Shown here piece after piece: positions 8,764 through 25,919 of a DNA stretch of 64,000 nucleotides. The position numbers and the translations under genes are program-made. The DNA comes from Pirellulales bacterium (GTDB lineage: Bacteria; Planctomycetota; Planctomycetia; Pirellulales; JAICIG01), in NCBI GenBank assembly GCA_025927475.1, contig JAICLL010000005.1, positions 21,219 to 85,218 of the forward strand, in the 5' to 3' direction. Each line of letters begins with the position of its first letter. Position 1 is the first letter of the stretch. The notes under the pieces are model-generated. The model saw only the letters and a list, made by a program, of their open reading frames with translations. It was not told the origin of the DNA and made no database searches.

Positions 8764-9846
8764 TCAATGTTCTTTCGCCGTCAAGATGTCGAGGACTCGT
8801 GCGGCAGCACTGCCGTCCCAAAATTGAGGCACGCGACCAACCGCTGGTTCCCCAGCAATCGCCGCCAAGCCAGCTTCGATGATCCGCTCTGGATTCATGC
8901 CCACTAAACAGTTTGTCCCCTCGCTGACCGTCGAGGGCCGCTCGGTGTTCGCCCGCAACGTCAGGCAGGGCACGCCCAGCACCGTGGTCTCCTCTTGAAT
9001 TCCGCCCGAATCGGTCAGCACTAGCCGCGCGTGAGCCAGCAGCTTCATAAAATCGAGATAGCCCAGCGGGTCGGTTAGCCGCAGATGGGGCATTTGGGCC
9101 AAATTCCACCCGGCCAGTGCCTGGCGCGTGCGCGGGTGTACTGGAAAGACAATCGGCAGCTCGCTTTGCAGCCGGCCGACCGCGCGGGCCAGGGCTTGAA
9201 ACACCGCCGAATCGTCGACATTCGACGGCCGGTGCAGCGTGAGTACGCCGTAAGGCTGGCCTTCCAGTTCAAGCTGCCGCAACACATCGGAATGTTCGCT
9301 CCGCTCGCGGCATGCCAACAAGGTGTCGATCATCAGGTTGCCCACAAAGAACATCCGCTCTTCGGCCACGCCTTCGCGGCGTAAATTCTCCAAGCCGCTT
9401 GGCTCCGAGACAAACAGCCAGCGGCTGATGGCGTCGGTGAGGATGCGGTTAATCTCCTCGGGCATGGCGCGATCGAAGCTGCGCAAGCCCGCTTCGATAT
9501 GTGCGACTGGCACGCCCAGTTTGACGGCGGTCAGCGCGCAGGCGATGGTCGAATTCACATCGCCCACCACCACCACGGCGTCGGGCCGCTCGTCCAGCAG
9601 CACCGGTTCAAAGCGCTTCATCACTTCGGCGGTCTGCACGGCGTGCGAGCCTGAGCCGACTTCCAAATTGGCGTCGGGCCGCGGAATGCGCAGCTCGTCA
9701 AAGAAGAGCTGCGACATTTGCTGGTCGTAGTGTTGGCCGGTATGGACCAAAAGCGCCTCGACGCCTGAGCGCCGCTCGATCTCCCACATCAGCGGGGCGA
9801 TCTTCATAAAGTTCGGTCGGGCGCCGACCACGGCGAGAAGTTTCAT
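8764..9846 (-). CDS. wecB: UDP-N-acetylglucosamine 2-epimerase (non-hydrolysing)
   Basis: MKLLAVVGARPNFMKIAPL..HTGQHYD..GDVNSTIACALTAVKLGVPVAHIEAGLRSFDRAMPEEINR is the classical WecB signature. Confidence 0.93.
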   Translation of the reverse strand: MKLLAVVGARPNFMKIAPLMWEIERRSGVEALLVHTGQHYDQQMSQLFFDELRIPRPDANLEVGSGSHAVQTAEVMKRFEPVLLDERPDAVVVVGDVNSTIACALTAVKLGVPVAHIEAGLRSFDRAMPEEINRILTDAISRWLFVSEPSGLENLRREGVAEERMFFVGNLMIDTLLACRERSEHSDVLRQLELEGQPYGVLTLHRPSNVDDSAVFQALARAVGRLQSELPIVFPVHPRTRQALAGWNLAQMPHLRLTDPLGYLDFMKLLAHARLVLTDSGGIQEETTVLGVPCLTLRANTERPSTVSEGTNCLVGMNPERIIEAGLAAIAGEPAVGRVPQFWDGSAAARVLDILTAKEH

Positions 9847-10010
9847 GGGCAGGATTCAGGATTCGGGATTCGGGGAAGAAGGCAATTGCCTTCATTTTCA
9901 GCATTCATCTTTTTGCCCCACATTTTTTTGTCTATCTCTTCGTGTTCTTGGTGTTCTTTGTGGTTCAACTCAATTCCCTGGCCCCCGGCCTCTGACCTCC
10001 GATCCCTCTC
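9847..10010. repeat. composite repeat block (GATTCGGG-type, CTTTTTGCCCC..CTTTGTGGTTCAA-type and GGTCAGAGG-type units)
   Basis: 9851-9883 AGGATTCAGGATTCGGGATTCGGGGAAGAAGG recurs at 27319-27347. 9890-9969 is about 80% identical to 11380-11462. 9975-10010 is related to 11521-11560 and encodes the C-terminal tail of the adjacent GT. Confidence 0.8.
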
Positions 10011-11184
10011 TTATCACTTCCAGCAAATGTCTCTCAACTTCCGCCAGCTTGGCATCCCAGCTTTCATGGCGGATGGCGTCGCTGCGCTCGTACGAGGGGC
10101 CTGGGTCGGCCAGCGCCTCGCAAATCTCCTGTTGGAAAGCATCGACCCCGGCGGCGATGCGGCATTGCCCCAGCACCTCGACCTCGGGTATCGGCGTCGA
10201 GATCACCGGCAAGCCCGCCGCCAAATACTCGCGCACCTTGAGCGGGTTGGCGTTCAGCGTCAGCTCGTTAATGCGAAACGGCATCAACGCCACATCAAAC
10301 CCCTTGCAGTAGGCCGGCAACTCTTCATACGGCTTGCGGCCGAGCAAATGCACGTTCGGCAAGGCCGCCAGCTCCGAGACATCGGTCGTCACCTTGCCCA
10401 GCACCACCAGCGACCCGTGCGGAAACCGCCGGGCCATCTCGGCCATCAATTCGACATCGACCCAGTCGGCCACCAGCCCGAAAAAACCGATTACCGGTTT
10501 CGGCAGTCGGGCCAGCTTTTCGGGCACGCGCGTCTCGGGCAATAGCGCCTTACGAAAATGATCGAAATCGACCCCGTGCCGCACCAGATGCGTCCGCGGG
10601 TTGAACGGACTTTTGCTCTGATAGAGCCGGTCAGCCGAGACCACCACCAGGTCCGCCCGATCGAGCAACTGCCGCTCCAACTCGGCCAGGGCCGTCGCCG
10701 TCACCCCGGTGAACTCGGTGTACTCATCGACGCAGTAATACACGACGGCCTCTTCGCCAAGCTGCCCGGCGATGACGGCCGCGGCGGGATTGAACACCCA
10801 ATTCAGCGGGCGGCGAAAACGCAGCCGCCGCATGGCTCGCCGCACCTGGTGCGTCAGAAACCGCCGGTTGAACGCGCGCACCGCCCGGCTGCCGTAGGCG
10901 GGCACGGCCAGCGGATTGAGCACAAAGATATTCGGCTCCGGCTCGCGAATGGGCGACATGGCCGCCGACAGCTTTTTCAGCGCGCGTCCCAGATCGGCCT
11001 TCGACACCGTCGGCGTGCGGTTGCCGATCGAGTTGACCCACAGCACGCGGTTGTGTCGCGCCAAGAGCCTCATCAGGTGCGTCTTCGACAGCGGATCTCC
11101 GCTCCAGTCGTGGCTGAAGCATAGGATGTCGCGCCCGTGCAGTCGCTTTGCGTCCGCGGCGGTGAGTGGTTCTTCAACGAGCAT
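9970..11184 (-). CDS. glycosyltransferase (GT1/GT4 clan, TuaH-like N-terminus)
   Basis: ILCFSHDWSGDPLSKTHLMRLLAR..VLWVNSIG, similar to 50125..51333. The C-terminal GT-B half carries an E-x7-E-like region. The last ~10 codons (SEVRGRGPGN) are encoded by a repeat unit. Confidence 0.8.
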   Translation of the reverse strand: MLVEEPLTAADAKRLHGRDILCFSHDWSGDPLSKTHLMRLLARHNRVLWVNSIGNRTPTVSKADLGRALKKLSAAMSPIREPEPNIFVLNPLAVPAYGSRAVRAFNRRFLTHQVRRAMRRLRFRRPLNWVFNPAAAVIAGQLGEEAVVYYCVDEYTEFTGVTATALAELERQLLDRADLVVVSADRLYQSKSPFNPRTHLVRHGVDFDHFRKALLPETRVPEKLARLPKPVIGFFGLVADWVDVELMAEMARRFPHGSLVVLGKVTTDVSELAALPNVHLLGRKPYEELPAYCKGFDVALMPFRINELTLNANPLKVREYLAAGLPVISTPIPEVEVLGQCRIAAGVDAFQQEICEALADPGPSYERSDAIRHESWDAKLAEVERHLLEVIREGSEVRGRGPGN

Positions 11185-11565
11185 GGAGGGACTGGGGACT
11201 GGGGAACAGGAAGGGGACGGGATTCAGGGGGCGGGCGTCAGGAACGAAGCAGGATTCGGGATTCTGTAGGGAACGCCCTCTGTGGCGTTCCGCGTTCTAC
11301 GGGTTTCGTCCGCGAACAGCTTGGTCGGGGGCGGGGGAACCACAAAGGTCACGAAGAGCACGAAGAAAACGTTACTTGTTCGCGCTCATTTTTTGCTCAC
11401 ATCTTTTTGCCCCTCAATCTTTTTGCCTATCTCTTTTTGTTCTTTGTGCTCTTTGTGGTTCAATTCCCGTTTCCGGCCACGAGGGCCGGCGCTATCGATC
11501 CGGCCACAAGGGCCGGGGCTACACATCCCCCCTGACCCCCGACCTCTGAACCCCGCCCCCCTGCT
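11185..11565. repeat. composite repeat block filling a whole intergenic spacer and running into the 3' end of the next gene
   Basis: It contains GGGGAACAGGAAGGGGACGGGATTCAGGG, AGGATTCGGGATTC, CTGTAGGGAACGCCCTCTGTGGCGTTCC (11264-11293), the inverted pair GAACCACAAAGG..(11337-11372) / ..CTTTGTGGTTC (11436-11462), two CCGGCCAC(A/G)AGGGCCGG hairpins (11473-11516), and CCCCTGACCCCCGACCTCTGAACCCC. Confidence 0.8.
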
Positions 11566-12818
11566 TCGCACGCCGCGGCCAGTACTTCGGCCAGTTGCTC
11601 CGCAGATTCTCGCCAAGTGCGAATGCAACGCTGTACCAACTCGGTGTGGACGCGCGGCGGTGCGGCCAGCACTTCCGCCAGCGCCGCGGCCAGTGCCGGC
11701 GCATTGCCCGGTTCGACCAGCCGGCTGTAGGAAGGATCCGCGATCTCGGGAATGCCGCCGACGCGCGTGGCGACAAACGGCCGAGCGCAGGCAAGCGCCT
11801 CGTAGAGCACATTGGGGATTCCCTCGGAAAAGCTGGGTAAGGTCACCACGTCGCAGGCCCGGTACCAATCGGGCAGTTCCGCATGCCCGCGCGGCCCGAC
11901 CAGCTTTACGCAATCGCCCAACCCATATTTGGCGATCAGCGACCGCACTTTGCCTTCGTCGCTCCCGCCGCCAACCACGTAGCACTCTGTAGGGAACGGA
12001 CTCCGTGCCGTTCCGCCCTCGTTCGTATTCCGGCCCGCGCTGGCCTCCGGCCCCGCGGAACGCCACGGAGTGCGTTCCCTACAGACGATGCCGCGGTCTC
12101 GCAGTATCCGGCAGGCTTCGACCAGCACGCCGGTCCCCTTGCTCAGCAATACGTTGCCGACGAATAAAATGATTCGCTGCTCCGGCGGCAGACCGAGCCG
12201 CCGCCGAGCGTCTTGCTGCTCGCCGGGGCTGAAGATGTCGCGATCGATCCCTCCTAAGACAACGTCGATCCGACGCCGGTCGACTCCCAGCCGTTCGACG
12301 TGCGCGGCCAGATCGCGGCTTACGGCCACGACGCGATCGGCGCAGCTCAGCGCCTCGCCAATGTACATGCGGCGGCGCATGTCCCGCGTCGCCACGAGCA
12401 CGTCAGAACCAACGACTTTGATCACCACCGGTAGACCGGCCTGACGGGCCAGCCTGAGTGCGGCCCAGCCGTCGGGATGAGCCCAACAGGCTAAGAGCAC
12501 GTCGGGCTGAAACTGGGCGAGAGCCTGCTGCACGCACTTGCGAATGCTGTGGTAAAAAAAGTGGCCCGCGCGCGGCCGCATCATGCGCGGCGGATAGTAA
12601 AACAGGGGATGCTCGACCTCCACGCCGTCGGAATTCGTATAACGGCCGGGAGCGGGGCGACGCTGCCATTGGTCCTTAAGCGCTTGATGCCAGGGCACTG
12701 GTGCGATGACGCGAACCGCGTGGGCCTGCGCTAGCGCTCCGAATTGCTGCCGATTGAACGGAGCAATCAAGTCGTGTCCCGGCCGCGGATACAGATTGGT
12801 GATGGAGAGAATGCGCAT
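11460..12818 (-). CDS. family 4 glycosyltransferase carrying an in-frame ~33-codon palindromic-element insertion
   Basis: GT-B/GT4 features (MRILSITNLYP.., EGIPNVLYEALACARPFVATRVGGIPEI). The segment CRERTPWRSAGPEASAGRNTNEGGTARSPFPTE is encoded by the inverted repeat at 11987-12084. The C-terminal tail is also repeat-encoded. Confidence 0.85.
   Translation of the reverse strand: MRILSITNLYPRPGHDLIAPFNRQQFGALAQAHAVRVIAPVPWHQALKDQWQRRPAPGRYTNSDGVEVEHPLFYYPPRMMRPRAGHFFYHSIRKCVQQALAQFQPDVLLACWAHPDGWAALRLARQAGLPVVIKVVGSDVLVATRDMRRRMYIGEALSCADRVVAVSRDLAAHVERLGVDRRRIDVVLGGIDRDIFSPGEQQDARRRLGLPPEQRIILFVGNVLLSKGTGVLVEACRILRDRGIVCRERTPWRSAGPEASAGRNTNEGGTARSPFPTECYVVGGGSDEGKVRSLIAKYGLGDCVKLVGPRGHAELPDWYRACDVVTLPSFSEGIPNVLYEALACARPFVATRVGGIPEIADPSYSRLVEPGNAPALAAALAEVLAAPPRVHTELVQRCIRTWRESAEQLAEVLAAACEAGGRGSEVGGQGGCVAPALVAGSIAPALVAGNGN
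11987..12084. repeat. 98-bp palindromic element (two inverted CTGTAGGGAACG..CGTTCC units) inside a coding gene
   Basis: CTGTAGGGAACGGACTCCGTGCCGTTCC at 11987-12014 and its inverted partner GGAACGCCACGGAGTGCGTTCCCTACAG at 12057-12084. The same unit occurs at 14132-14160 and 11264-11293. Confidence 0.85.
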
Positions 12819-12837
12819 CCGTTTTGTCCGCTCTTCT

Positions 12838-14181
12838 CTAGGCGCGCACCAGTGCCGGCTGTCGACAGGCGGAACGTAAACTACAGTAGACCCGTTCGTA
12901 CTCCGCGGCCATCCGCGTCAAACTAAGGTCGCGCTGCACGCGGGACAGTCCGGCCTCCGCCAACCGAATGCGCAACGGCGGGTCGGCGCACAACGTCTCC
13001 AAGATCTCCGCCAACTGGGCATCGTCTCCGCTGGCAAACAGCTTTCCGGTGACACCATCTTCGATTAACTCAGGCACGCCGCCCACGGCCGAACCAACGA
13101 CGGGCAGGCCTGCCGCCCAGGCCTCCAAGATGGAAAGCGGCATTCCTTCGGAGCGGCTGGTGAGCGCGAAAACATCCATTCGCTGCAGGTACACTTCAGG
13201 CGCCGCTTGGTAACCGGCAAAGTGGGTCCGCTCGCGGATTCCTAACGCGTCGGCCAATCGCTCCAATTCGCCGCGCATCGGCCCATCACCGACCAGCAGC
13301 AGCCGCGCCTCCGGCCTGTTCGCCGCCAATCGGGCGAACGCTCGTAGCAGCACGTCTTGGCGTTTAATTTCGTTCAATCGACCAATCGTGCCAATGGTGA
13401 GACTAGGGGCTGGCGGCTGGAAGGCGAAAGAGTGGGGACGCGACAAGGCGACATCGCCTCCCTGAAGCCCGAATCCCGAATCCAGGATCCTTTCCGCTGC
13501 CTGTTCCCCGTCCCCTGTCCGCTGTCGCCTAAACCTTTCCACATCGATCCCATTGGGCACCACCACCAGCTTGGCGGCCGGAACGACCTTCATCGCACGT
13601 ACGGCCTCGCAAATGTCGTTTGACACGCAGCAGAATCGCTGGGCATAACGGCCCGCCAACCGCCCCATCCACCGCGTGCGCCGCCGCGCGTAATGCTTGC
13701 CGTGCTCGGTGTGAATGACCGCTCGGATGCCGGCCCGCCGCGCAGCCGGACCCGCGTAGAGCAGCGCGCCGATTTGATGGGTATGCACCACGTCTGTTTT
13801 CAATTCGCCAAAGATCCGCACCAACGGGGCGATGATGCCGGGGCGCAGGCCAGGCAGCTTACTGACGCACCGGACCTCGGCCCCGGCCGCACGGGCGTCG
13901 TCGGCCAACGCGCCCGGCCGCTCCAGGCAAACCACCGCGGTCCGTTGCCCGAGCCGGGCCCCCTGGCGCGCCAGGTCGATCACCAGCCGTTCCAGCCCTC
14001 CCACGTCAAGCGAAAGCACGACGTGCGCCACGCCAAGAGGCCTGGTTTCAATGGGCGCGGTCAAAGCAACCTCGGATTGGTGTTGATAATTGGTTTTGGC
14101 AATCAATATCGGTGGGTCATACACTCGACGTCTGTAGGGAACGGACTCCGTGCCGTTCCGTGACCTGTCAATTGGCCTCAT
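12838..14181 (-). CDS. family 4 glycosyltransferase with in-frame repeat-derived insertion
   Basis: VAHVVLSLDVGGLERLV.. N-terminus and SEGMPLSILEAWAAGLPVVGSAVGGVPELI E-x7-E region. The first ~40 codons of the ORF are repeat-derived, so the real start may be TTG 14064 or GTG 14031. Confidence 0.85.
   Translation of the reverse strand: MRPIDRSRNGTESVPYRRRVYDPPILIAKTNYQHQSEVALTAPIETRPLGVAHVVLSLDVGGLERLVIDLARQGARLGQRTAVVCLERPGALADDARAAGAEVRCVSKLPGLRPGIIAPLVRIFGELKTDVVHTHQIGALLYAGPAARRAGIRAVIHTEHGKHYARRRTRWMGRLAGRYAQRFCCVSNDICEAVRAMKVVPAAKLVVVPNGIDVERFRRQRTGDGEQAAERILDSGFGLQGGDVALSRPHSFAFQPPAPSLTIGTIGRLNEIKRQDVLLRAFARLAANRPEARLLLVGDGPMRGELERLADALGIRERTHFAGYQAAPEVYLQRMDVFALTSRSEGMPLSILEAWAAGLPVVGSAVGGVPELIEDGVTGKLFASGDDAQLAEILETLCADPPLRIRLAEAGLSRVQRDLSLTRMAAEYERVYCSLRSACRQPALVRA
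13400..13530. repeat. repeat-derived segment inside GT4 gene (GATTCGGG-type and GGGGACGGGGAACAG-type units, reversed)
   Basis: 13467-13490 GCCCGAATCCCGAATCCAGGATCC and 13501-13520 CTGTTCCCCGTCCCCTGTCC are reverse complements of units seen at 11190-11265. They are translated as ILDSGFGLQG.. between conserved GT4 blocks. Confidence 0.65.
14132..14160. repeat. single CTGTAGGGAACGGACTCCGTGCCGTTCCG unit
   Basis: Its first 28 nt (14132-14159) are identical to the 11987-12014 arm; the next base differs (G at 14160, C at 12015). Confidence 0.85.
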
Positions 14182-14498
14182 CCTGCCGTGGCGGCCCGCC
14201 CCCCTCGCCGACTTGCCCGGCAGGAGCGCAAGTTTGACAGGCTAAAAACGATCTCAGCGAACTGCTGTCCACTTGCCGTCTATCGCGTGCCGGCAGAGGA
14301 AAGACGGCGGACAGAACGGTGGGCAGGGCGCCACTTAGCCATCCAAACTCGTTCACCTGCCAGACCAAGCTGGCAGGGGGCGTGGCCGTTCCCGGCATTT
14401 GTGTAGAGCAACGAGCGGGCAAGCCCCCGTCGTGGCGGAACGAAAGCAGAATGTACGATCCGTTTGGGCGGCGCACCCATTTCAATACCCGCAACCGC

Positions 14499-15617
14499 TC
14501 AAATCCCATTGGCCGCCGTCGGTTCCAGCACCGCCAGCACGGGCCGATGGTCGGAGCCGACGTGCGGCCCCACCCAAGCGCGCTCGACGCGAAAACCTGC
14601 TCCTGCCAAAATATGGTCGATCCGAATGCCGTACCAGTTGCCCGATGTCGTGTAGCCATACGTATATCCATAGCCCCAGCCGGCCGCGGCAAAGGCGTCG
14701 GAAAATGCTGACCAGTCGCGGCGAAAAATCGAGCTCTCGTGGGGCAAGTTCATATCGCCCGCCACAATCACCGAGCCTTCCAGCACGTCGACCCAGCGGC
14801 GCAGCTCGGCCGATTCTCGATCACGTCGCGCGCGGTTGGCCCGCATGCCCTCGATGCCCGCCAAACGGCGGTCCTTGATGGCCTCGAGCCCCTTGCGCGG
14901 CGTATAAAGGTGGACGGCAACAAAGTCGATCGGCCCGGAGGGCGTCTCCATCCGGTAGTCGATGGCCACCGTCCTCCACGAAGCCGCTTTGCTGCCAGTA
15001 AACAGCTTGCGACGGACGATCGGAAATTGGGTGGCCACCAAAATGCCTGGCGTCACTTCGATCTGCCAATTCGGCCCCAATAGTTGCCGCATGCCCTCTT
15101 CGTCGAATTTCTCTTGGAGCGTAATGATGTCGGGCCGCTCGTCGGCGATCAAAGTCGCCAGCGCGCCCGGCGCGAGCGGCGCCAGCCCGACGTTGCAGGT
15201 GAGCACGCGCACCGGAGGATAGCCGCCTGCGTCGTCGCTTGCGACCGCGCTGGCTATCCGCTGCCAGGGGACGCAGAAGCCCATCAGCGGCCAAGCCACC
15301 CACAGCGCCGACAGGGCCACCAGCCAAGTCAACCTTCGCCGCCAAAGGAGAACCACGGGCAAGATCACCGCCAGCGGCAGCGGCCAAACCCAGCGAGGCG
15401 CGAACAGCAACACCGTGGTCCACCACCAGCGGTCGCCGCCGACGCGCAAGGCCAGCCAGGCGGTAATGACTCCCGCCGCATACGCCCAAGCGAGCCACCC
15501 CGCCAGGCGCCAGACCACGCCACGCCGCGTCGCGGCCCCGGCGGGCGCTGCCGCACGATTCATACGCTCGCCTTTGGCGGAATCAGGCCGCGCGGTCACT
15601 CTCCTTTTTTGGTCCAT
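14499..15617 (-). CDS. endonuclease/exonuclease/phosphatase (EEP) family protein with N-terminal TM segments
   Basis: RVLTCNVG..DIITLQE..GDMNL..GSDHRPVLAVLE are the EEP catalytic motifs; the N-terminus has about 3 hydrophobic helices. Confidence 0.8.
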   Translation of the reverse strand: MDQKRRVTARPDSAKGERMNRAAAPAGAATRRGVVWRLAGWLAWAYAAGVITAWLALRVGGDRWWWTTVLLFAPRWVWPLPLAVILPVVLLWRRRLTWLVALSALWVAWPLMGFCVPWQRIASAVASDDAGGYPPVRVLTCNVGLAPLAPGALATLIADERPDIITLQEKFDEEGMRQLLGPNWQIEVTPGILVATQFPIVRRKLFTGSKAASWRTVAIDYRMETPSGPIDFVAVHLYTPRKGLEAIKDRRLAGIEGMRANRARRDRESAELRRWVDVLEGSVIVAGDMNLPHESSIFRRDWSAFSDAFAAAGWGYGYTYGYTTSGNWYGIRIDHILAGAGFRVERAWVGPHVGSDHRPVLAVLEPTAANGI

Positions 15618-15717
15618 TCCGTTTACGATTTCAAAGCTCCGATAATGAGTCCATCATGGCGGTGAATCGCTAGGTGCGTTCGAAACGACCAAGCGCGAGC
15701 GTAGCTGCGCGTAGTTC

Positions 15718-16977
15718 TCAGTACCTTGCCAGTTGCACTGCCTCTGGTGCGGCGGGCAGCGATTCTTTTCGCTTGACCCGGCGCGGCTTCACAAATGCAT
15801 CGCGAAGCACAAGAAACGGATGTTCGATCAGGCAGTAAGTCACGACTGCCGCCGCGGCCGACAACGCCGCGACGATACACTCCGAAGCCAAGAGGTGCAG
15901 CGACGGCGCCGTGTCTCTACCGGGCAGATAGGCTAGGGTGAAACGAACTGCCGGCGCGTGGAGATACGAATGGTTCAGATACATGCCATACGAAAGCCGA
16001 GACAACCAATAAAACACCCGCCCCGATATCGCGCGGTTGATGAAGCCTTCGGGCGGTAAGAAGCGGTCAGTCTGCAGAGCGAGCCAAACCAAGCTACCAA
16101 GAAGAAATGTCATCCCCGTGAGGTTGAATACCTCGCGCTGCACGCCGCGGAATAGAGGCATGGCGATGCACGAGGCCAGCAACAGCACCCAGGCGGTCAG
16201 GGCGGCGCCGCCGCGCACTGAATCTCGGCCGCGCTCAACGACCAGGTTTGCGAGAATCAGGCCCATCAGCAGTCCGTCACAGTTGGAATGAATAGGTTGG
16301 TAAATGTGTCGGTTCCATAGCCCCGGGTCATGGCGCCAAAAATCGCCCGTCAGGCGACACCAGGTCAACGCACGGATGGCCGGCAGCGCCAACAAGGCAA
16401 TCCAGAGATAACGCCGGTAGCGCGCCACCGGCGTGACGAACTGCGCGGAAACAATCAGCGCCAGCGGAGCGAGCAGATAAAATTGCTCCTCCGTGCAGAG
16501 CGACCAGCTACCCATGACGACGCCGTGGTTGAGATAGTTCGTGAGAAACACGGCGTCCGACCAGCCTTGACCGCCGAGAAAATCTCCCCGGCCCAACACG
16601 CAGAGCACAAAGACCAGGAAAAAGAAGTAGAGCGGCCAGATCCGGAAGCCGCGCCGCAAAAAGAACCGCCAAAAATCGATGGTGCCTTGGGTGGCCAGCT
16701 CGCGCCAGAGCTGCAAACCGATCAAGTAGCCGCTGAGCACGAAAAAGAGGTTGACGCCGATCCAGCCCGCGCCCAAGATTCGAACCCGTCCAAGTGCGCT
16801 GTGTATTCCTCCAGCGTTCTCGTAACTTTCAAGCGTGTGGCCCCAGACCACAATGAGCACCGCGCAGGTGCGCAGCACGTCGAGCGCCGGCAGTTGGCCA
16901 CGCGGCCGATGCCGAAGATCGTTGAGAGAACCGGCAAAGAGTCGGCTCAGTTGATTCGCGGCGGCTTCGATAGTCAC
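15718..16977 (-). CDS. acyltransferase family 3 (integral membrane O-acyltransferase, OafA/YrhL-like)
   Basis: About 10 TM helices and an N-terminal LDVLRTCAVLIVVWGHT motif typical of acyltransferase_3. Confidence 0.82.
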   Translation of the reverse strand: MTIEAAANQLSRLFAGSLNDLRHRPRGQLPALDVLRTCAVLIVVWGHTLESYENAGGIHSALGRVRILGAGWIGVNLFFVLSGYLIGLQLWRELATQGTIDFWRFFLRRGFRIWPLYFFFLVFVLCVLGRGDFLGGQGWSDAVFLTNYLNHGVVMGSWSLCTEEQFYLLAPLALIVSAQFVTPVARYRRYLWIALLALPAIRALTWCRLTGDFWRHDPGLWNRHIYQPIHSNCDGLLMGLILANLVVERGRDSVRGGAALTAWVLLLASCIAMPLFRGVQREVFNLTGMTFLLGSLVWLALQTDRFLPPEGFINRAISGRVFYWLSRLSYGMYLNHSYLHAPAVRFTLAYLPGRDTAPSLHLLASECIVAALSAAAAVVTYCLIEHPFLVLRDAFVKPRRVKRKESLPAAPEAVQLARY

Positions 16978-24779: not shown

Positions 24780-25919
24780 TTAGATGATATCGGCGAACGA
24801 ATCTTCGACGCGGCGAAAGTACAAACAGCCCAAGACCAGCAGGGCAACCACGCCCAAGCTCGACCAGCGGAGCATCGGCCAGGGGATCGGGCCGCCGACC
24901 ACCGCCGCGCGGAACGAAGCCACCAGACCGGTGAGGGGGTTGAGCGCGAGCAGGGAAGAAGAGAAACCGGAGGTCAGTGGCCGGGGGTCAGGGGGCGGAG
25001 AGGGGTCGGAGGTCAGTGGCCGGGGGTCAGGGGGCGGAGAGGGGTCGGAGGTCAGAGGTCGGAGGTCAGGGGACGAAGACAACGCAGATTCGGCCCTGGC
25101 CTCGGGCCGCTGGCCTCCGACGTCCGCCGGAGTGTTCATGTAAATCGAGGGCGTGGCAAACATCCAAAGCTGCACCAGAAACGGAATCACGTATCGAAAG
25201 TCGCGGTAAGCCACGTTCAAGGCCGCCAACAGCGTGCCGACGCCTAAGGCCGCCAACGCGAACAGCGCCACCAGCACGGGCACGAGCAGCAGCCCCCAGG
25301 AGGGCGGCACGCGATACCAAATCATCAAGACCAGCAGCATGCTAAAGGCGACCGCAAAATCGACCAGCGCCGCCCCCACCGACGCGAAGGGAATCGCGAG
25401 TCGAGGAAAATAAATCTTGGTGATCAGCCGTTCGGAGCCGACCACGCTGTTGCCGGCGCTGGCGATGGCGGTGGCGAAAAACGTCCAGGGCAGCAGGCCG
25501 GCGAAGACGAACAACGGATAAGGCATTCCGCCGGAATCGACGTGGGCCATGCGGCCAAAGAAAATGCTGAAGACCACCATCATCATGGCCGGCTGCAAGA
25601 CCGCCCAGGCGGCGCCCAGCACCGTTTGCTTATAGCGGACCTTCACATCGCGCCACGCCAAAAAGTAGAGCAGCTCGCGATATTGCCACAGTTCTCGCGC
25701 GTTCACAAGCTGCCAGCCGCGGGGCGGGCGGATGATGGTGCGCGGCAGCGCATCCGGCCCCACGGCTTCCGGCTGGGCATGTGGCCCAGCCGCCCCCGGC
25801 TGGGTTTCACCGCCGAGGGCGGCGGTGCCACAAGGCGCTGAGGAGGCACCATCGAGCGCGGCGCCGCCCGTAGGCGCACCGCTTACCGTTTCCATCGTCT
25901 CTTCAAGATCAGTCGACAT
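24780..25919 (-). CDS. wzm: ABC-2 type polysaccharide exporter permease with in-frame proline-rich tandem-repeat insertion
   Basis: RELLYFLAWRDVKVRYKQTVLGAAWAVLQP is the ABC-2 signature, with 6 predicted TM helices. An insertion of ..DLRPLTSDPSPPPDPRPLTSDPSPPPDPRPLTSG.. sits before the LALNPLTG motif. Confidence 0.9.
   Translation of the reverse strand: MSTDLEETMETVSGAPTGGAALDGASSAPCGTAALGGETQPGAAGPHAQPEAVGPDALPRTIIRPPRGWQLVNARELWQYRELLYFLAWRDVKVRYKQTVLGAAWAVLQPAMMMVVFSIFFGRMAHVDSGGMPYPLFVFAGLLPWTFFATAIASAGNSVVGSERLITKIYFPRLAIPFASVGAALVDFAVAFSMLLVLMIWYRVPPSWGLLLVPVLVALFALAALGVGTLLAALNVAYRDFRYVIPFLVQLWMFATPSIYMNTPADVGGQRPEARAESALSSSPDLRPLTSDPSPPPDPRPLTSDPSPPPDPRPLTSGFSSSLLALNPLTGLVASFRAAVVGGPIPWPMLRWSSLGVVALLVLGCLYFRRVEDSFADII
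24969..25072. repeat. 39-bp tandem repeat (2 identical copies + partial third) inside wzm
   Basis: GGAGGTCAGTGGCCGGGGGTCAGGGGGCGGAGAGGGGTC at 24969-25007 and 25008-25046, with a degenerate third copy to 25072. 39 bp equals 13 codons, so the repeat is in frame. Confidence 0.9.

Follow-up and report, generated by a model that had tools for sequence, protein, structure and literature searches.

Structure of the locus

Within the 64-kb window (the whole stretch of Pirellulales DNA analysed here), a gene for a GT4 glycosyltransferase carries in its reading frame a palindromic element made of two inverted REP units and a spacer, and single copies of the same unit lie on either side of this gene (Table 1). 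The REP unit pattern, CTGTAGGGAACG-N10-CGTTCC, has exactly four matches in the window and none in 100 dinucleotide-preserving shuffles of it. These matches are the two inverted units around a 42-nt core and the further units at 11264 and 14132 that had been pointed out in the initial annotation. No further REP copies were found in the 64-kb window at up to six substitutions, and all four copies sit within 3 kb, a clustering that we counted against the mobile-element reading discussed below.

Table 1 Coordinates of the GT4 gene, the REP doublet and the single REP units in the 64-kb window
Feature	Position	Strand	Size	Sequence or arrangement	Context or evidence
GT4 (GT-B) glycosyltransferase gene, P0001	11460..12818	-	452 aa		Pfam, AlphaFold model, Foldseek, EX7E
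Codons C246-T277	11988..12083	-	32 codons	Element DNA only	Codon-level read-out
REP doublet, REPIN-type	11987..12084		98 nt	Head-to-head, GTAG tags outward	In frame inside GT4 gene
Left REP unit	11987..12014	+		CT-GTAG-GGAACGG-ACTCCGTG-CCGTTCC; 5' CT, GTAG tag, 7-bp stem, 8-nt loop	Exact pattern search of window
Doublet spacer	12015..12056		42 nt	Encodes roughly AGPEASAGRNTNEG
Right REP unit	12057..12084	-		CT-GTAG-GGAACGC-ACTCCGTG-GCGTTCC	Exact pattern search of window
Single REP unit	11264..11291	+			Intergenic, GT4 gene stop to start (11184) of next GT gene; exact pattern search of window
Single REP unit	14132..14159	+			5' region of second GT4 ORF (12838-14181, minus strand); exact pattern search of window

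The four copies in the window conform to CT-GTAG-GGAACGS-(8 nt)-SCGTTCC, with a stem of GGAACGS/SCGTTCC and an 8-nt loop that is either ACTCCGTG or CCTCTGTG. Two copies have G:C at stem position 7 and two have C:G, a compensatory change that also separates the right unit of the doublet (C:G) from the left (G:C). The left unit and the singlet at 14132, which lie about 2 kb apart, are 100% identical. The extended arms of the doublet (11986-12016 and 12055-12085) show 94% complementarity; 38 nt lie between them, whereas the 28-nt units are 42 nt apart. As sense-strand RNA, the element has a predicted folding energy of -71.1 kcal/mol, compared with -45.1 +/- 3.5 kcal/mol in shuffles (z = -7.5). 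An Rfam scan of positions 9000-16000 (E <= 1) gave no match at the element, no terminator-like site was found there in a search for intrinsic terminators, and a literature search with the REP string returned unrelated primer matches only.

The two singlets had been described as lying in non-coding or N-terminal contexts. This is right for the intergenic copy at 11264, which is embedded in a mosaic of other repeat families, and probably wrong for the copy at 14132: homology of the second GT4 ORF to a 70%-identical ortholog starts at residue 49 (about nt 14037), that ortholog has a REP at the corresponding place upstream, and the singlet, judged from these alignments, most likely precedes the real start of the gene. 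Over 12.96 kb that contain the element, a second NCBI contig, JAICMK010000044.1 (GCA_025929325.1), agrees with the window at every position, with a 7-nt indel elsewhere as the sole difference. The frame of the GT4 gene is thus intact in two assemblies, and the frameshifted pseudogene that the initial annotation had allowed for was not seen.

The host protein and its additional loop

The GT4 ORF passes through the element without a break and encodes ..ILRDRGIV-CRERTPWRSAGPEASAGRNTNEGGTARSPFPT-ECYVVGGG.., with the outermost C and G of the 98 nt finishing the codons of V245 and E278, so that the in-frame read-through by an intact gene proposed from the sequence is borne out. The element is stop-free in two of the three frames on each strand, and the TAG inside GTAG is the only stop that it can supply. 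Its length of 98 nt is not a multiple of three, and the in-frame result requires an adjustment of 1-2 nt at the junctions; likewise, a net gain of 31-33 codons is compatible with an element of 94-100 nt only after such an adjustment. An example of a predicted tryptic peptide across the insert junctions is SPFPTECYVVGGGSDEGK.

P0001 matches the Pfam profiles of the GT4 N- and C-domains (PF13439, PF13579, PF00534 and PF13692), and its Glycos_transf_1 match begins at profile position 49, directly after the insert. The EX7E residues E332 and E340, which are invariant in the orthogroup, are intact, and all other invariant residues are present, including K227 and G228. The tail of the protein, from about residue 424 to 452, is encoded by other repeat DNA, and the synteny of the gene cluster around the GT4 gene is conserved.

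The AlphaFold model of P0001 (62 sequences; mean pLDDT 89.5, pTM 0.87) resembles MshA (3c4q, TM 0.84), BshA and SPS (sucrose-phosphate synthase) in a Foldseek search, and is confident except for the insert and the C-terminal tail, which is disordered. Residues 242-276 form a coil with a pLDDT of about 50-76 between helix H229-241 and strand E277-282, and the alignment with the MshA structure is broken between residues 244 and 290. The structure prediction suggested earlier as a check accordingly depicts the insert as a low-confidence coil, and the roughly 32 residues encoded by the element are predicted to be a disordered surface loop. The site is not, however, the linker before the second Rossmann half, as had been supposed; in the model, the insert is inside the C-terminal Rossmann domain, in the loop from helix 1 to strand 2. 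In Rossmann folds, the helix-to-strand crossover loops are found on the edge opposite the ligand-binding edge, and it is because of this position that the site would tolerate an insert.

Expansions of the same loop in orthologs

Of 118 orthologs, 108 have a segment of 10-13 residues between A235 and C279, both of which are invariant, whereas this segment comprises 43 residues in P0001. P0004, which is the closest ortholog (65-67% identity) and groups as sister to P0001 in a neighbor-joining (NJ) tree, reads RDGGFSCY (..LRDGGFSCYLIGGG..) at this place and has no insert at the DNA level. The interpretation of the approximately 33 extra residues as an insertion holds, and orthologs do not share these residues.

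REP doublets were also found at the same loop in three other orthologs. P0006 and P0105 contain the same REP family as P0001. The P0006 doublet, in the same loop and frame, has a spacer of only about 4 nt (CTGTAGGGAATGCCCTCCGTGGCATTCC gcgc GGAACGCCACAGAGGGCGTTCCC) and one further compensated stem change, and in P0105 the same junction is followed by an array, which brings the loop to a total of 117 residues, about 105 of them extra. P0013 contains a doublet of a different GTAG family, GTAGCGGACTTCGTGCGAAGTCCG ... CCGAACTCTCACGAGTTCGGCTAC. In addition, a clade of five orthologs (P0005, P0007, P0008, P0009 and P0011) has inserts of 21-29 residues without recognisable REP arms, and P0034 has a separate segment of 21 residues in the same loop, again without recognisable arms. 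Because the insert-bearing groups are separated by insert-free orthologs on the NJ tree, which carries no support values, at least four independent expansions at this one GT4 loop are implied.

The REP family in other genomes

A scan of 596 Gb, with one genome per species, yielded at least 118 loci that match the REP pattern; these loci were picked by the pattern itself, and the fractions given here are indicative. In 596 Gb, 16 fixed bases should be matched about 280 times at random, and chance was nevertheless rejected as the source of the matches, as the N10 segment almost always extends the stem and contains a conserved loop. Among the matches listed, 40 loci with 61 exact units belong to Planctomycetota, with related Pirellulales MAGs supplying several loci each. 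Of these 61 units, 50 have the 5' CT, 58 have a Watson-Crick pair at stem position 7 (48 C:G and 10 G:C), and 48 have a head-to-head partner within 150 nt, so that doublets outnumber singlets in these pattern-selected loci. The other 78 loci listed, with 104 exact units, come from other phyla, among them Clostridia, Syntrophomonas, Desulfobacterales, Anaerolineae and Ignavibacteria. There, stem position 7 is Watson-Crick in 93 of the 104 units (A:T, G:C or C:G), the 5' CT is present in 10, and a head-to-head partner within 150 nt in 19. The doublet spacers among the loci listed range from 8 to 78 nt and are alike only within one genome; three spacers of 39 nt in MAG LejiaD_61_23 and two of 34 nt in SMAG_U8579 are similar within each genome.

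Copies within reading frames are found in other genes as well. An in-frame doublet splits the middle domain of a GH57 glucanotransferase (locus L001), in-frame singlets are present in a hydantoinase/oxoprolinase (L114, encoding RNATEGVPY) and in a 1686-aa ORF (L113), and an ortholog of the GT4 that neighbours P0001 contains an in-frame GGTPQRAFPT in its interdomain linker (L120). No recurrent neighbour gene was detected by all-vs-all BLAST of the ORFs within 1.2 kb of the REPs at the 118 loci listed, which is expected if the copies are dispersed and non-autonomous.

Association with RAYT-like genes

In other genomes, the REP family shows a link to genes for RAYT-like transposases. ORFs matching the NCBIfam model NF047646 (REP-associated tyrosine transposase) at E <= 1e-16 are carried by five of the 118 loci listed, with one of these five matches above the curated cut-off. 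At L013 and L071, the RAYT-like ORF is preceded by a REP at a distance of 16-50 nt, and a second, inverted REP is located in frame just after the HuH motif, where it encodes GTPRRAFPT or GTTRRSFPT. A metagenome scan for this arrangement gave eight more loci, L127-L134, and in all of these, as in L013 and L071, the same REP is found beside or in frame inside RAYT-like genes. L127-L134 also hold REP copies outside the search pattern, some of them in frame near the N-terminus (VGNAALGVP), and in L131 and L134 REPs are present at both ends of the RAYT-like gene. In a homolog from Lachnospiraceae, the HuH segment is enclosed by two perfect inverted copies, both in frame, of a GTAG REP other than this one. 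The RAYT-like ORFs at L088 and L012 were considered as cognate genes and rejected, as they lie 1.2-3.4 kb from doublets and are not doublet-flanked.

In-frame REP insertions between HuH and Y have been described in the transposase genes of TnpA subclass 2.4 (Quentin et al. 2018, PMC6006769); the RAYT-like genes with in-frame REPs fit this subclass, and we accordingly discarded the idea that such insertions within RAYT genes are new. For TnpA-REP enzymes, CT is the experimentally mapped cleavage dinucleotide and GTAG serves as the guide (PMC8266576). In the 64-kb window itself, a motif scan and jackhmmer on six-frame ORFs revealed no RAYT gene.

Comparison with known repeat elements

Based on the GTAG tag, the short stem-loop, the 5' CT and the head-to-head doublet, the element can be assigned by its sequence features to the GTAG-tagged REP doublets (REPINs), in an unusual but documented position. 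It has the unpaired GTAG beside a short stem kept by compensatory changes that characterises GTAG-REPs, and the inverted REPs and spacer, predicted to fold as one hairpin, that characterise REPINs. According to the text of Di Nocera, De Gregorio & Rocco (2013, PMC3733652), GTAG-REPs have a 5' unpaired GTAG next to a stem-loop of 6-13 bp with complementary stem variants, and most commonly occur as head-to-head dimers with the GTAG outside and spacers of 20-100 nt, as here. The hosts named there include Planctomycetes and the PVC group, to which the present case conforms. These elements are described as mostly intergenic, between co-directional genes, with a minority wholly inside ORFs like the copy in P0001; intragenic dimers encode 20-30 amino acids and are stated to be most abundant in a bacterium of the PVC group. 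The present element differs in its loop of 8 nt, compared with the 2-4 nt given there as typical, and in its host gene, a GT4 glycosyltransferase, whereas DNA-repair genes are stressed in the same text. The stem GGAACG was not found in the searched text and supplementary files of PMC3733652, whose consensus sequences are given in its Figure 1.

The REPINs and RAYTs of Bertels & Rainey (2011, PMC3116915) and PMC6006769 share with our family the inverted REP doublet with a spacer, the long hairpin, the excess of doublets over singlets, and the presence of the same REP at the flanks of RAYT-like genes. This situation is different in three respects: the cognate RAYT is seen only in other genomes and not in the window; the REP skeleton is common to several phyla, in contrast to the classical REPIN-RAYT pairs, for which lineage specificity and vertical inheritance have been described; and the copy in P0001 is intragenic, whereas REPINs were defined from extragenic space.

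The initial annotation had compared the element with the Rickettsia palindromic elements (RPEs). As regards behaviour the likeness is real, because RPEs are palindromic repeats located in frame in genes that stay open, adding a peptide at tolerated positions. RPEs are, however, Rickettsia-specific sequence families. The text of PMC3733652 places RPE-4 and RPE-6 in the CGTC-tagged REP superfamily and describes RPE-1 as a longer palindrome. Membership of the present element among the RPEs was rejected: its tag is GTAG and not CGTC, it has a 5' CT, forms a head-to-head doublet, comes from Pirellulales and belongs to a family linked to RAYT-type transposases, features by which it is set apart from the RPEs as they have been described.

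MITEs such as Correia and Nezha were also considered, being likewise small, non-autonomous elements with a palindromic or inverted-repeat structure and able to land in genes. MITEs have terminal inverted repeats derived from insertion sequences (IS) and are flanked by target-site duplications. There is no flanking duplication at the present element (left ..AGCACT, right ACGATG..), its arms are self-folding GTAG hairpins, and this assignment was rejected.

Origin and persistence of the insert

Taken together, these features make it probable that the 98-nt element belongs to the non-autonomous mobile elements of the REP/REPIN class, landed in the GT4 gene in the lineage of this genome and has been tolerated as a loop. 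REP doublets would move as single-stranded DNA hairpins, and their GTAG tag with its hairpin would be recognised by a RAYT (an HUH/Y1 tyrosine transposase, TnpA-REP), which would cut at the adjacent CT; we infer that such an enzyme mobilised the element in this genome, and that the entry of one copy into the GT4 gene dates to the line of descent of this genome. Its persistence may be attributed to a net gain of a whole number of codons, to the frame used (CRE...), which avoids the TAG within GTAG that is the only possible stop, and to the site in the C-terminal Rossmann domain, namely the crossover loop from helix 1 to strand 2. Going by the general topology of Rossmann and GT-B folds, this loop faces away from the inter-domain catalytic cleft, and for this reason the GT4 protein, as modelled, probably carries the ~32 residues as a harmless, disordered loop and may well have retained its enzyme activity.

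It is improbable that the GT4 is instead functionally dead, the doublet having disrupted the enzyme and the open frame being a recent or accidental survival in stop-poor, GC-rich DNA. Such DNA does yield long spurious ORFs, many overlapping ORFs are present in the window, and the C-terminal tail is likewise repeat-derived and disordered; but both Rossmann halves are still in one frame, none of the invariant residues of the orthogroup (E332/E340 of EX7E and K227/G228 among them) has been lost, the model is confident outside the loop and the cluster synteny is conserved. Furthermore, REP inserts in the same loop occur in orthologs of several independent lineages, as expected if they are tolerated. 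We give even less weight to the explanation that REP-like arms were introduced into a native hypervariable loop through gene conversion or recombination involving the intergenic REPs at 11264 and 14132, without any transposed copy; this seems highly improbable. It would account for the identity of the left arm to the singlet at 14132, only ~2 kb off, for the clustering of the four copies, and for the inserts of 21-29 amino acids lacking recognisable REP arms in the sister clade of P0005, P0007, P0008, P0009 and P0011. However, the canonical head-to-head layout with two unit variants is found at dozens of unrelated loci, the sister P0004 has no loop extension to convert, and gene conversion alone would not make an inverted pair whose CT-GTAG ends coincide exactly with the junctions.

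The recurrence of expansions at one loop, up to 117 residues in P0105, bears on two further readings that go beyond simple tolerance. One of them, that the insert is exapted, with selection acting on the disordered loop or on the -71 kcal/mol mRNA hairpin (through partner binding, inter-domain translational pausing or mRNA stability) and the loop perhaps being a targeted landing site, has in our view little probability. The four or more independent expansions, the repeat-derived in-frame inserts that also occur in the neighbouring GT4 and its ortholog, and the REP kept at the orthologous upstream position between genomes with 70%-identical proteins are in its favour; yet the insert sequences are wholly different between lineages (in REP family, spacer and length), most orthologs, including the closest one, have no insert, the peptide is predicted to be unstructured, and the recurrence is accounted for equally well if selection has eliminated insertions at all other places. 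The other, which we regard as unlikely though slightly less so, is that the helix-1 to strand-2 loop of the GT4 orthogroup is a preferred REPIN landing site, or that REP-encoded disordered loops have been recruited there repeatedly. If this were true, REP doublets would be a recurrent source of loop innovation in the envelope glycosyltransferases of planctomycetes. The observations in line with this reading are the same expansions and the repeat-derived inserts of the neighbouring GT4. Insertion of a mobile REP doublet followed by tolerance remains the explanation that we prefer.

Implications

The GT4 gene provides a clear case of a bacterial mobile hairpin element that is translated as a segment of an enzyme. 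The novelty is smaller than the initial annotation implied, as in-frame REP dimers in genes had already been documented (Di Nocera 2013, PMC3733652; Quentin 2018, PMC6006769): the GT4 insert is a new example of a published phenomenon and leaves the current picture of REP/RAYT biology unchanged. What it adds is a clear comparison with an empty site in the sister ortholog, a structural reason for the tolerance, and the repeated occurrence of REP doublets at one loop. The recurrence at the same loop, involving two REP families and differing spacers, constitutes a natural experiment on where the GT-B fold accepts insertions, and such a map of insertion tolerance would be useful for protein engineering and for annotation. 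The REP-derived peptides RNATEGVPY, GTPRRAFPT and CRERTPWRS recur in Planctomycetota proteins, and such recurring peptides can mislead homology searches and gene calling.

Repeats within coding sequences

Among the matches listed from a pattern scan of one genome per species (L001-L118), the skeleton of the GGAACG REP family, GTAGGGAACG (7-bp stem and 8-nt loop), spans several phyla; its hosts are Planctomycetota, Clostridia, Syntrophomonadaceae, Desulfobacterota, Chloroflexi and Ignavibacteria, and each lineage has loop variants of its own. So wide a distribution is unusual compared with REP families in general, which are usually described as lineage-restricted.

Genes for RAYT-like tyrosine transposases were found to hold their cognate REPs in frame within their own ORFs. 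One REP lies past the HuH motif and often a second near the N-terminus, and together they bracket the HuH segment with their GTAG tags facing outward. In-frame REPs inside a transposase gene have previously been described for TnpA subclass 2.4 (PMC6006769); those recognized here belong to the GGAACG family, in hosts whose GC content ranges from 36% to 65%. One of these loci, L013 (JAVBUD010000158.1), is labelled as a Eubacteriales MAG, yet it has a GC content of 62% and a Planctomycetota-type REP loop, and has an ORF family in common with a Planctomycetaceae locus. This contig is probably mis-binned.

In the neighbouring GT4 gene of the window, the interdomain linker is extended in frame by about 40 residues, reading ..GDGEQAAERILDSGFGLQGGDVALSRPHSFAFQPPAPS..; this insert is made of a different repeat family, GGATTCGGGATTC / GGGGAACAGG. 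In the ortholog at locus L120, which is 70% identical in protein sequence, the linker insert is longer and different, and contains a GGAACG REP. A further REP of this family is located at a matching relative position 5' of the conserved start of both genes; in the window it is a singlet, while in L120 the remains of a partner arm, now degenerate, are still present. The position shared by two genomes whose proteins differ to this degree points to long persistence of the upstream REP at an orthologous site.

The C-terminal tails of the doublet-bearing GT4 (residues ~424-452) and of the 404-aa glycosyltransferase (GT) are both translated from repeat DNA. Two TCCGGCCACGAGGGCCGG hairpins and a family of GGGGTCRGAGGTC repeats are part of this DNA. 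The GT4 tail has a pLDDT below 50 in the structure model, and its ..VAPALVAG.. motif also forms the C-terminal end of the ortholog P0007.

Among the other GT4 orthologs, P0105 (554 aa) has a helix-1/strand-2 loop of 117 residues, in which three REPs, two of them arranged as a doublet, occur together with five tandem EPSPWPSPGGRGDA copies; the C-terminal Rossmann domain is thereby about 105 residues longer. Fusion or duplication is seen in two relatives: P0002 (787 aa) has two complete tandem GT4 copies in one ORF, and P0003 (684 aa) has an additional partial N-terminal copy.

Repeats between genes

Between the genes of the glycosyltransferase cluster, short repeats of four or more families form mosaics, an arrangement like that of BIME-type composite repeats; one of these families is a 125-nt palindrome with GAACCACAAAG.. 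arms. Across the 12.96 kb matched by a second assembly (L126), the sole difference is in how often the 7-nt sequence CCCCAGT, as read on the gene strand, is repeated, with two copies in the window versus three in L126. Because these repeats lie 3-22 nt upstream of the ATG of the 404-aa GT gene, the spacing of its translation-initiation region could be altered by their copy number.

Coordinates of repeats and associated genes (window unless a locus is named)
Feature	Position	Strand	Remark
RAYT-like genes with in-frame REPs	L013 2459-2823; L071 5551-5958; L125 1630-1858; L127-L134		
Neighbouring GT4 gene	12838-14181	(-)	insert at ~13410-13525
REP upstream of neighbouring GT4	14132-14159; L120 178-203		
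GGATTCGGGATTC / GGGGAACAGG, further copies	7111, 9852, 11220-11273, 27320		
Tail-coding repeat DNA	11460-11560; 9970-10010		GT4; 404-aa GT
GGGGTCRGAGGTC array	24967-25097		
404-aa GT gene	9970-11184	(-)	ATG at 11184
CCCCAGT repeats	11187-11206		
Intergenic mosaics	9850-10010; 11190-11560		
125-nt palindrome, arms GAACCACAAAG..	11337-11461		partial copy at 9910-9971
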